Shown here one piece after another: positions 54,021-60,499 of a stretch of 64,000 nucleotides of DNA. The notes beneath the pieces were generated by a model. The model searched no databases. It saw only the letters and a list, made by a program, of their open reading frames with translations, and had not been told where the DNA came from. The translations under genes and the position numbers were made by a program. The stretch lies in assembly GCF_030013595.1 (NCBI RefSeq), contig NZ_CP122768.1. One strand, 5' to 3'. This DNA comes from Escherichia coli. GTDB taxonomy: Bacteria; Pseudomonadota; Gammaproteobacteria; Enterobacterales; Enterobacteriaceae. Positions within the stretch are counted from its first letter, which is position 1, and the number at the start of each line of letters is the position of its first letter.

Positions 54021-54102
54021 TTTTTCGCCTTTCATACTTGCAAAAGCGGAGAATCAGCTATCCTTTTCCCTGAAACCTCATCAACTCAAAGGGAGAATCG
54101 TG

Positions 54103-54477
54103 ATGACCATGTACGCAACGCTTGAAGAAGCCATTGACGCTGCACGCGAAGAATTTCTTGCAGACAACCCCGGCATCGACGCCGAAGATGCGAATGTGCA
54201 ACAGTTCAATGCCCAAAAATACGTTTTGCAGGACGGCGACATCATGTGGCAAGTTGAGTTTTTTGCCGACGAAGGGGAAGAAGGTGAATGTTTACCTATG
54301 CTTAGCGGTGAAGCCGCGCAAAGTGTCTTTGACGGCGACTATGATGAGATAGAGATCCGCCAGGAGTGGCAAGAAGAGAATACATTACATGAATGGGACG
54401 AGGGGGAATTTCAGCTTGAGCCACCGCTGGATACCGAGGAAGGACGCGCAGCAGCTGATGAGTGGGATGAACGTTAA
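54103..54477 (+). CDS. msyB: Acidic protein MsyB
   Basis: ORF 54100..54477 (+); MTMYATLEEAIDAAREEFLADNPG...; very acidic (Asp/Glu-rich), 124 aa. Confidence 0.9.
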   Translation: MTMYATLEEAIDAAREEFLADNPGIDAEDANVQQFNAQKYVLQDGDIMWQVEFFADEGEEGECLPMLSGEAAQSVFDGDYDEIEIRQEWQEENTLHEWDEGEFQLEPPLDTEEGRAAADEWDER

Positions 54478-54705
54478 TCACTCATACGGGCCATGATGAA
54501 TGTCGATCGGCAGCAGTAAAGTATCAAAAACCAGGGAGAATGGCAGATCAAGGATCGTGACATAACGCCAGGCGGAGTCACGCACATCCCATTGCACACC
54601 GGGATAATATTGGTTGCCATGCCCCTGCCCCGGTATAGTGCGACTAATAATGCTGCCACAGCCACTCAGCAAGGTCACCATGATGCTCACCACAATTAAA
54701 CGCAT
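54478..54705 (-). CDS. yceK: YceK lipoprotein
   Basis: ORF 54478..54705 (-), 75 aa; lipobox LSGC; convergent with and abutting msyB. Confidence 0.85.
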   Translation of the reverse strand: MRLIVVSIMVTLLSGCGSIISRTIPGQGHGNQYYPGVQWDVRDSAWRYVTILDLPFSLVFDTLLLPIDIHHGPYE

Positions 54706-54731
54706 TTGATACCTCTTCCGTAAAAAAATAC

Positions 54732-54744
54732 CGGCATAACGCCG
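54732..54744. repeat. Left copy of the 13-bp IS4 target-site duplication
   Basis: cggcataacgccg immediately left of the IS4 left inverted repeat; identical copy at 56171..56183. Confidence 0.8.
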
Positions 54745-56170
54745 TAATGCCGATCAGTTAAGGATCAGTTGACCGATCCAGTGGCTGTGTAAGAATCCGG
54801 AAACGCTCACTTGTTTCCGGATTTTTTTATGCACATTGGACAGGCTCTTGATCTGGTATCCCGTTACGATTCTCTGCGTAACCCACTGACTTCTCTGGGG
54901 GATTACCTCGATCCCGAACTCATCTCTCGTTGCCTTGCCGAATCAGGTACTGTAACGCTACGCAAGCGCCGTCTTCCCCTCGAAATGATGGTCTGGTGTA
55001 TTGTTGGCATGGCGCTTGAGCGTAAAGAACCTCTTCACCAGATTGTGAATCGCCTGGACATCATGCTGCCGGGCAATCGCCCCTTCGTTGCTCCCAGTGC
55101 CGTTATTCAGGCCCGCCAGCGCCTGGGAAGTGAGGCTGTCCGCCGCGTGTTCACGAAAACAGCGCAGCTCTGGCATAACGCCACGCCGCATCCGCACTGG
55201 TGCGGCCTGACCCTGCTGGCCATCGATGGTGTGTTCTGGCGCACACCGGATACACCAGAGAACGATGCAGCCTTCCCCCGCCAGACACATGCCGGGAACC
55301 CGGCGCTCTACCCGCAGGTCAAAATGGTCTGCCAGATGGAACTGACCAGCCATCTGCTGACGGCTGCAGCCTTCGGCACGATGAAGAACAGCGAAAATGA
55401 GCTTGCTGAGCAACTTATAGAACAAACCGGCGATAACACTCTGACGTTAATGGATAAAGGTTATTACTCACTGGGACTGTTAAATGCCTGGAGCCTGGCG
55501 GGAGAACACCGCCACTGGATGATACCTCTCAGAAAGGGAGCGCAATATGAAGAGATCAGAAAACTGGGTAAAGGCGATCATCTGGTGAAGCTGAAAACCA
55601 GCCCGCAGGCACGAAAAAAGTGGCCGGGACTGGGAAATGAAGTGACAGCCCGCCTGCTGACCGTGACGCGCAAAGGAAAAGTCTGCCATCTGCTGACGTC
55701 GATGACGGACGCCATGCGCTTCCCCGGAGGAGAAATGGCGGATCTGTACAGTCATCGCTGGGAAATCGAACTGGGATACAGGGAGATAAAACAGACGATG
55801 CAACTGAGCAGGCTGACGCTGAGAAGTAAAAAACCGGAGCTTGTGGAGCAAGAGCTGTGGGGTGTCTTACTGGCTTATAATCTGGTGAGATATCAGATGA
55901 TTAAAATGGCGGAACATCTGAAAGGTTACTGGCCGAATCAACTGAGTTTCTCAGAATCATGCGGAATGGTGATGAGAATGCTGATGACATTGCAGGGCGC
56001 TTCACCGGGACGTATACCGGAGCTGATGCGCGATCTTGCAAGTATGGGACAACTTGTGAAATTACCGACAAGAAGGGAAAGGGCCTTCCCGAGAGTGGTA
56101 AAGGAGAGGCCCTGGAAATACCCCACAGCCCCGAAAAAGAGCCAGTAAGTTGCTTAACTGACTGGCATTA
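54745..56170 (+). mobile_element. Insertion sequence IS4 (complete, 1,426 bp)
   Basis: Terminal inverted repeats TAATGCCGATCAGTTAAG (54745-54762) and CTTAACTGACTGGCATTA (56153-56170; 16/18 match); single DDE transposase ORF; flanked by 13-bp direct repeats; the length equals canonical IS4. Confidence 0.9.
54829..56148 (+). CDS. insG: IS4 transposase (InsG-like, IS4-family DDE transposase)
   Basis: ORF 54811..56148 (+); ATG at 54829 ([20 protein letters not shown]...); IS4-family C-terminal Y..R..E signature (...[17 protein letters not shown]...). Confidence 0.9.
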
Positions 56171-56183
56171 CGGCATAACGCCG
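56171..56183. repeat. Right copy of the 13-bp IS4 target-site duplication
   Basis: cggcataacgccg immediately right of the IS4 right inverted repeat. Confidence 0.8.
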
Positions 56184-56204
56184 GTATTTTTATTGGCTCG
56201 TTGT

Positions 56205-56310
56205 TTTTGCCAGATGTGGCGTGAACGCCTTATCCGACCTACAAAATCTTGCAAAATCAACACATTGCAGGAGCGATGTAGGCCTGATAAGCGTAGTGCA
56301 TCAGGCAACT
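56205..56310. repeat. BIME (REP cluster) downstream of opgH
   Basis: gatgtggcgtgaacgccttatccgacctac and gtaggcctgataagcgtagtgcatcaggc REP units. Confidence 0.7.
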
Positions 56311-56316
56311 ACGTTT

Positions 56317-60499
<4,183 letters not shown>

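Follow-up and report, generated by a model that had tools for sequence, protein, structure and literature searches.

An IS4 insertion in the attenuator of pheST was reportedly described in 1984 by Mayaux et al. in Gene, with AAA-N20-TTT proposed as the target consensus. The resident IS4 of Escherichia coli K-12 (insG; IS4 family, IS4 subgroup) shares with the copy analysed here its length of 1426 bp, its terminal repeats and a target of the AAA-N20-TTT type. The K-12 copy sits at yjgZ-nanX, whereas the copy here lies at opgH-yceK, and the hairpin at this second site is far better than that at the K-12 site (-17.8 vs -8.1 kcal/mol). For the IS4 subgroup, a target-site duplication of 10-13 bp, conserved symmetric 'target arms' and a signature of the element ends have already been described, and some account of the dyad-symmetric target of IS4 was given at the same time (De Palmenaer et al., 2008; PMC2266710).

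Other elements with symmetric or palindromic targets offer a wider comparison. IS231A (IS4 family, IS231 subgroup), likened here by description, resembles IS4 in its family, its 10-12-bp duplication and its dyad-symmetric target, but differs in subgroup, ends and hosts (Bacillus), and prefers transposon ends over terminators. Its consensus is said to be GGG-N5-CCC with A/T-rich bent flanks. The symmetric target consensus of IS231A has been linked with DNA bending (Hallet et al., 1994, as cited in PMC2266710). IS1397, ISKpn1, IS621 and ISRm22, the last of which is a member of the IS4 family, insert in extragenic palindromes (Tobes and Pareja, 2006; PMC1525189). IS4 likewise enters a palindromic intergenic element at a fixed place, but where those elements use repeated REPs of defined sequence, IS4 uses unique terminator hairpins of varied sequence which have only their tracts and geometry in common. 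An excess of terminator-like sequences directly upstream of insertion sequences of several families has been reported in the available text of a preprint, where the terminators are taken as limiting transposase expression and the signal is strongest in the IS200/IS605 family; the element IS4 is not named in that text (bioRxiv 10.1101/2025.07.22.666184). Unlike in that interpretation, the association of IS4 with a terminator here arises because the element splits the terminator at its tip.

The copy considered here lies in a 64,000-nucleotide stretch of E. coli DNA (the window; contig NZ_CP122768.1), between opgH and yceK (Table 1). Two identical 13-bp copies of CGGCATAACGCCG flank it as a direct repeat, a length within the 10-13-bp range of the subgroup. 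Its terminal sequences are TAATGCCGATCAGTTAAGG on the left and, as the reverse complement, TAATGCCAGTCAGTTAAGC on the right; imperfect inverted repeats starting -AATR, TAATGCC..., on an element of ~1.4 kb, are those of the IS4 subgroup. Against the annotated mobile element IS4 of K-12 MG1655 there are 7 differences in 1426 nt (99.5% identity), and near-identical matches of this copy carry the RefSeq label 'IS4-like element IS4 family transposase'. The transposase scores 304.5 bits against NCBIfam NF033592 (IS4 family transposase; cut-off 115), with the whole profile covered. A C-to-A substitution at IS position 1403 makes it 3 aa shorter than K-12 InsG, the last three residues being lost; both ends and the ORF are otherwise intact. 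The original prediction had named the element as IS4, placed its 13-bp duplication at the centre of a hairpin and read its transposase as antisense to opgH, and the identity, the paired repeats and the opposed strands in Table 1 bear out all three.

Table 1. Features at the IS4 insertion between opgH and yceK, in positions of the window.
Feature	Position	Strand	Basis or remark
msyB, convergent with yceK and abutting it	54100-54477	+	ORF list, K-12 layout
yceK, YceK/YidQ lipoprotein, 75 aa, intact	54478-54705	-	NF007555, 168.6 bits, full length
Split palindrome, outer left half: A7 run (54722-54728) + TAC	54722-54731		
Target-site duplication, yceK-side copy, CGGCATAACGCCG	54732-54744		
IS4 insertion sequence, 1426 bp	54745-56170	+	Terminal ends, length, comparison with K-12 IS4
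IS4 imperfect terminal inverted repeats, 18-19 nt	left 54745-54763, right 56152-56170		
IS4-internal hairpin, 15-bp stem + U7, directly before the transposase AUG	54791-54828	+	Listed as inverted repeat I4
IS4 transposase gene, 439 aa, single uninterrupted ORF	54829-56148	+	Translation, NF033592
Target-site duplication, opgH-side copy, CGGCATAACGCCG	56171-56183		
Split palindrome, outer right half: GTA + T5 run (56187-56191)	56184-56191		
REP/BIME-type repeats between the opgH stop and the hairpin	~56225-56310		Approximate bounds
opgH (mdoH), gene upstream of yceK, stop at 56317	56317-58890	-	Longest GTG ORF

The neighbourhood is otherwise that of K-12. The distance from the yceK ATG to the left end of IS4 is 39 nt, with a layout identical to K-12. 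The start of opgH was taken from the longest GTG ORF, the protein having 847 aa in the K-12 annotation. Within the REP/BIME-type block, Rfam ES036 matches at 56243-56285 (45.7 bits vs a gathering score of 37.6), and there is a weak match to naRNA4 too. The pair yceK-msyB has been reported as a convergent excludon (PMC12288877).

Deletion of IS4 and one copy of the repeat leaves a site reading ...GTAAAAAAATACCGGCATAACGCCGGTATTTTTATTGG..., a perfect A7-stem-loop-T5 hairpin of about -16 to -18 kcal/mol with a 12-bp stem and a 5-nt loop, laid out as A7-TAC-[13 bp]-GTA-T5. On the - strand, the direction of opgH and yceK, it folds at -18.2 kcal/mol (z -4.4) and is followed by U7; on the + strand the values are -17.9 kcal/mol and z -5.7, with U5AUU next. 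On neither strand did any of 200 shuffled sequences fold as well. The reconstruction is matched by natural empty sites: the exact 400-bp empty junction is found at 100% identity in 4 E. coli genomes, and at a query coverage of at least 80% the empty site is present in 5372 of 5426 complete E. coli genomes, so that it represents the normal state. K-12 carries the same hairpin at opgH-yceK. The claims that removing the element restores a perfect hairpin between an A-run and a T-run, and that IS4 splits a terminator-like palindrome downstream of opgGH, are thus upheld by the fold and by these genomes together.

The position of the hairpin agrees with a role in termination on both strands. On the - strand it lies ~125 nt past the opgH stop, behind the REP/BIME block. 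On the + strand it lies ~250 nt past the msyB stop; msyB and yceK adjoin without intergenic space, and the hairpin is the first terminator-like structure past msyB, reached after the transcript has crossed yceK in antisense. A G+C-rich stem-loop with a U-tract is found on both strands, in each case 3' of a transcription unit, and the pre-insertion hairpin is predicted from its sequence to be a bidirectional intrinsic terminator. The available part of the supplement of Adams et al. (2021) has no 3' end at K-12 111353x-111356x and no entry for opgH, mdoH or yceK, which may reflect low expression. A simple terminator scan of K-12 missed the intact hairpin, in our reading because stem extension consumed the T-run, and the result was kept out of the evidence.

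A profile of IS4 targets was derived from a metagenome scan with both IS4 ends, which gave 92 distinct E. coli-type flanks; the flanks surveyed come from extant genomes and metagenome contigs and so are already filtered by selection. In these flanks A is enriched at -23..-16, with a peak of 87% at -18, C is enriched at -14..-9, and G is present at -4 in 76% and at -1 in 84%. At least four of the six positions -21..-16 are A in 79% of flanks, compared with 6% of random positions in the same contigs. The A-run beside yceK, at -23..-17 from the end of the element, agrees with the A-rich positions of this profile. In 17 cases the full target could be rebuilt; the median fold was -14.4 kcal/mol, against -6.1 kcal/mol for controls (Mann-Whitney p = 1e-6). 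The duplications measured 11-14 bp where flanks were paired and 11-13 bp in copies found whole on a single contig.

The profile also predicts the insertion point. A log-odds matrix was built from 90 flanks, with the yceK site excluded, and applied with symmetric scoring and staggers of 11-13 bp to the IS-free window. Among 187,527 candidates the highest rank fell to position 54732 at a stagger of 13 bp, which places the insertion far from chance.

The same site has been used more than once. The junction of the yceK flank with the IS4 left end occurs, in the present orientation, in 13 of 5426 genomes, and a chimeric query for the opposite orientation at the same site found 4 further genomes. 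At three loci that were inspected, covering both orientations, IS4 is 1426 bp long, falls at one and the same nucleotide and is flanked by an identical 13-bp duplication. Since both orientations occur at one nucleotide, the site has been entered at least twice independently. A second E. coli site, found through the resemblance of its flank to the yceK site, lies at aroA-ycaL (AAAAAAAACGC[CGGCAATGTGCCG]ACGTTTTG) and is occupied in 40 genomes; here too a 13-bp duplication is centred in an A-run, palindrome and T-run.

Relatives of IS4 in other genera show the same pattern. In a contig scan, an identical 18-nt end was found, among the matches listed, in Pseudoalteromonas, Pseudomonas, Shewanella, Vibrio, Methylophaga, Vreelandella, Comamonas, Vogesella and others. 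One complete relative (L109) measures 1436 bp and encodes a transposase 46% identical to that of the IS4 copy. The flanks of the relatives have an A-run and then a G+C-rich arm, with at least four A in six positions in 85% of flanks, and their rebuilt targets are perfect sites of A-run, hairpin and T-run with duplications of 10-12 bp. The matches listed also include short MITEs (120-215 bp) that carry these 18-nt ends, dozens of them in REP-like palindromes of Pseudomonas sp. ok272. A cross-pairing of the Pseudomonas MITE flanks was dropped, as all copies share one duplication-like sequence.

The original prediction had also suggested that IS4 might prefer hairpin-forming targets, to be checked by comparing other insertion sites for palindromes. 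The comparison strongly supports a preference for such targets: the rebuilt targets are mostly hairpins, the palindrome at aroA-ycaL is similar to that at yceK, and the use of one site in both orientations and the 92 flanks point the same way. What does not stand is a strong hairpin as a constant feature. The K-12 resident site fits AAA-N20-TTT with a weak fold, and two further genuine targets have correctly spaced tracts around weak hairpins (L132/L156, -2.9 kcal/mol; L191/L219, -6.7 kcal/mol). Given these weak-folding targets, the preference is best put as one for A-tract/T-tract sites with dyad symmetry; the genomic sequences of this kind are usually bidirectional terminators.

The geometry of the tracts can be followed in 22 rebuilt targets of E. 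coli IS4 and its relatives, pooled from different elements. From the boundary of the duplication, the nearest AAA or TTT lies at 3 nt in 27 of the 44 half-sites and at 2-4 nt in 40 of 44. The length of the duplication (10-14 bp) tracks the interval from A to T (rho 0.64), a correlation that is partly built in because the interval includes the duplication, and shows no correlation with loop size in the rebuilt targets (rho 0.12). Stem sequences vary among sites, and the A/T tracts and their geometry are constant, the tracts being ~18-20 bp apart.

From this we favour a reading in which two A/T-tract half-sites are read by a symmetric transpososome with a fixed cut offset, and terminators happen to satisfy it. 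The target chosen would consist of an A-tract and a T-tract with ~18-20 bp between them, mostly G+C-rich and as a rule self-complementary, and in real genomes such targets would almost always be bidirectional intrinsic terminators. Terminators as the usual target agree with a crude heuristic count of long ORFs that lie no more than 250 nt from an IS4 end: in 38 of 57 the 3' end was the one turned toward IS4, with a median gap of 40 nt. A two-fold symmetric complex of transposase and ends may read one A/T tract per protomer. Each strand would then be cut ~3-4 bp inside its tract, so that the central 11-13 bp, the tip of the hairpin, are duplicated, and differences in half-site spacing would give duplications of variable length.

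Alternatively, IS4 may read DNA structure, an extruded cruciform or single-stranded hairpin, with the palindrome itself as the signal instead of the tracts. Most rebuilt targets are indeed near-perfect palindromes whose stems differ in sequence and yet stay complementary, and in 49% of flanks, compared with 2.6% of random positions, the last 4 nucleotides are complementary to a 4-mer that lies 3-7 nt upstream. Top matrix hits in the window are mostly hairpins, so composition and structure are inseparable in genomic DNA. However, the poorly folding targets named above are genuine and have kept their tracts (K-12, -8.1 kcal/mol, among them), and the matrix still puts the true site first without a pairing term. 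The IS4-family transposases of Tn5 and Tn10, moreover, act on duplex targets. We consider recognition of structure improbable, and return to the reading of two tracts as half-sites.

The consequences of the insertion for transcription can be predicted for each side. At the junction on the opgH side, A-run, arm, loop and partial arm are followed by IS4 sequence, and local folding reaches no more than -8.9 kcal/mol and lacks a U-tract. With the U-tract lost, read-through of opgGH into IS4 is likely, and because opgH lies on the - strand and the transposase on the + strand it would be antisense to the transposase. Intrinsic termination is probably lost on this side in our fold model, and opgGH transcripts would enter IS4 and continue to Rho or a later signal.

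At the junction on the yceK side a new 8+2-bp hairpin (-10.9 kcal/mol) is predicted, with the original U7 directly after it; it re-forms through pairing of the IS4 terminus CGGCAUUA with UUAUGCCG in the adjoining repeat copy. As modelled, yceK would probably stay about as insulated as before the insertion, and the altered expression first proposed for it appears less likely. Both ends of IS4 share TAATGCC, and by eye the same junction pairing is therefore expected in the opposite orientation. A promoter scan detected no promoter, outward or hybrid, running from the left end of IS4 into yceK, where only weak matches can be seen by eye, and no sigma-70-like promoter was detected in the opgH-yceK spacer of K-12. 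The layout suggests that yceK is probably expressed by read-through of the terminator, with or without IS4. In the available part of the data of Adams et al. (2021), a Rho-dependent 3' end lies antisense to msyB in K-12, so transcripts do cross yceK there.

On the + strand, IS4 brings a strong hairpin of its own directly before the transposase (-24.4 kcal/mol, z -4.7). It overlaps the -10 of a promoter-like site at 54769-54796, the predicted transposase promoter. The transcript of the element itself would not form it (-7.3 kcal/mol, z +0.6), and transcripts from outside would. This hairpin and its U7 would be expected to stop msyB read-through.

It could be argued that the insertion is adaptive and was kept because it changes the expression of opgGH, yceK or msyB, for example by removing the shared terminator. 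The 17 genomes that carry it come from varied sources and show both orientations, the terminator on the opgH side is structurally destroyed, and the reported excludon means that transcript overlap matters at this locus. However, 17 of 5426 genomes is rare beside the 5372 with an empty site, target specificity alone accounts for the recurrence, and a terminator-like hairpin is re-formed before yceK, with IS4 bringing another on the + strand. An adaptive origin thus appears quite unlikely. The insertion has little local weight: the element is known, the site is occupied in the 17 sequenced E. coli, and the predicted effects are at most modest on the opgGH 3' ends and probably nil on yceK.

Selection might also act in a more general way. 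In mutation-accumulation lines 4 of 8 new IS4 insertions were in coding DNA (Lee et al., 2016), which indicates that the terminator preference of IS4 is not absolute. These coding insertions, and the filtering of extant copies by selection, would suit an IS4 that inserts anywhere and of which only harmless intergenic copies survive, but we find this scarcely credible, as selection would not produce registration exact to the nucleotide with the same position and 13-bp duplication in both orientations, an A-tract offset fixed at 2-4 nt or conserved G at -1 and -4, and the true site ranked first among candidates that included many other intergenic positions. The insertion is very probably an ordinary, targeted IS4 transposition into its preferred kind of site, ordinary because IS4 and its relatives habitually choose such sites.

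The insertion at opgH-yceK is therefore a real insertion of a known element behaving as expected; it is already known in kind and of low novelty. The generalisation across genera, the interpretation of the targets as terminators and the idea of measuring from half-sites are modest extensions. More widely, the flanks surveyed show elements of the IS4 type breaking bidirectional terminators in a predictable way, exact to the nucleotide. A target rule of this kind would let annotators forecast IS4 hot spots, and it accounts for recurrent 'identical' insertions that could be mistaken for shared ancestry. For work on how DDE transposases recognise targets that are dyad-symmetric, bent or extrudable, it also provides a natural model.

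A broader reading, which we put forward tentatively and think somewhat more apt to fail than to hold, is that the whole IS4 subgroup, full elements and MITEs alike, is a dedicated 'terminator-tip' inserter across Gamma- and Betaproteobacteria. Its members would cut 3-4 bp inside the tracts, the length of the duplication (10-14 bp) would be set by the spacing of the half-sites and not by a fixed stagger, and the 3'-end overlap between neighbouring genes would be systematically rewired. We know of no explicit statement of such a reading beyond the target-arm conservation of De Palmenaer et al. (2008).

IS4 occupies a second E. coli site of the same kind as that at yceK, in the aroA-ycaL spacer of IAI39, where the duplication is the centre of a terminator-like palindrome adjoining the aroA 3' end. 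Counting the orientation found in this locus (L001), the aroA-ycaL site carries IS4 in 40 of 5426 complete E. coli genomes. The next-best unoccupied matches in the window to the IS4 target matrix, with predicted duplications starting at 21575, 15101 and 8980, all have the A-run/hairpin/T-run arrangement (3/3), and each is a candidate hot spot at which IS4 may insert in future.

Coordinates of features at and around IS4 insertions
Feature	Location	Strand	Details
IS4 site, aroA-ycaL spacer, IAI39	L001 2516-2528 and 3955-3967		13-bp duplication CGGCAATGTGCCG
Promoter-like site in IS4	window 54769-54796	+	predicted
IS4-internal hairpin	window 54791-54828	+	15-bp stem and U7, directly 5' of transposase AUG
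REP/BIME block	window 56195-56310		between hairpin and opgH stop

Exact copies of the 18-nt IS4 terminal repeats are also found on MITEs of ~120-215 bp (L051-L101 from Pseudomonas sp. ok272, and L010, L013, L014, L016, L047 and L106). The Pseudomonas sp. ok272 MITE is present in dozens of copies of ~145 bp that lie within REP-like palindromes, in the layout GTAGGAGCGAGGCTTGCCC, MITE, ...AGGCTTGCCCGCGAAGG, and the Comamonas MITE (L047) is located in an A-run/hairpin/T-run. A complete 1436-bp element of the IS4 subgroup (L109, 1-1436) has 18-nt ends identical to those of IS4, although its transposase shares only 46% identity with the IS4 transposase; given this divergence, a comparison of the two elements indicates that the ends are conserved unusually strongly.

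The hairpin within IS4 has a folding energy of -24.4 kcal/mol (z -4.7), and its left arm contains a predicted -10 hexamer. Therefore, RNA reading through from outside would form this hairpin, whereas the transcript made by IS4 itself would not. The hairpin thus positioned before the transposase looks like a shield, which may guard against activation from outside.

On the strand antisense to msyB, Adams et al. (2021, supplement) report a Rho-dependent 3' end at K-12 coordinate 1114048 (+), corresponding to ~54236 (-) in the window, and RNAs crossing yceK therefore extend into msyB antisense. Such extended yceK transcripts fit the reported yceK-msyB excludon (PMC12288877). In the yceK Shine-Dalgarno region (54716-54717) the window has GGAAGAGG 5' of the ATG, where K-12 and strain 789 have GAAAGAGG, and none of the 13 genomes sharing the yceK-IS4 junction has 100% identity over the 300-bp junction query.

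On the opgH side, Rfam ES036 (CssrF) matches at 56243-56285 (+) with 45.7 bits, above the gathering score of 37.6, and the REP/BIME block includes a weak naRNA4 match at 56195-56239 (-). The IS4 of K-12 and IAI39 has C at element position 1403, where the window copy has A; this substitution produces a TAA stop (56146-56148) three codons early, and the transposase of the window copy ends in ...KKSQ (439 aa) rather than ...KKSQSVA (442 aa).
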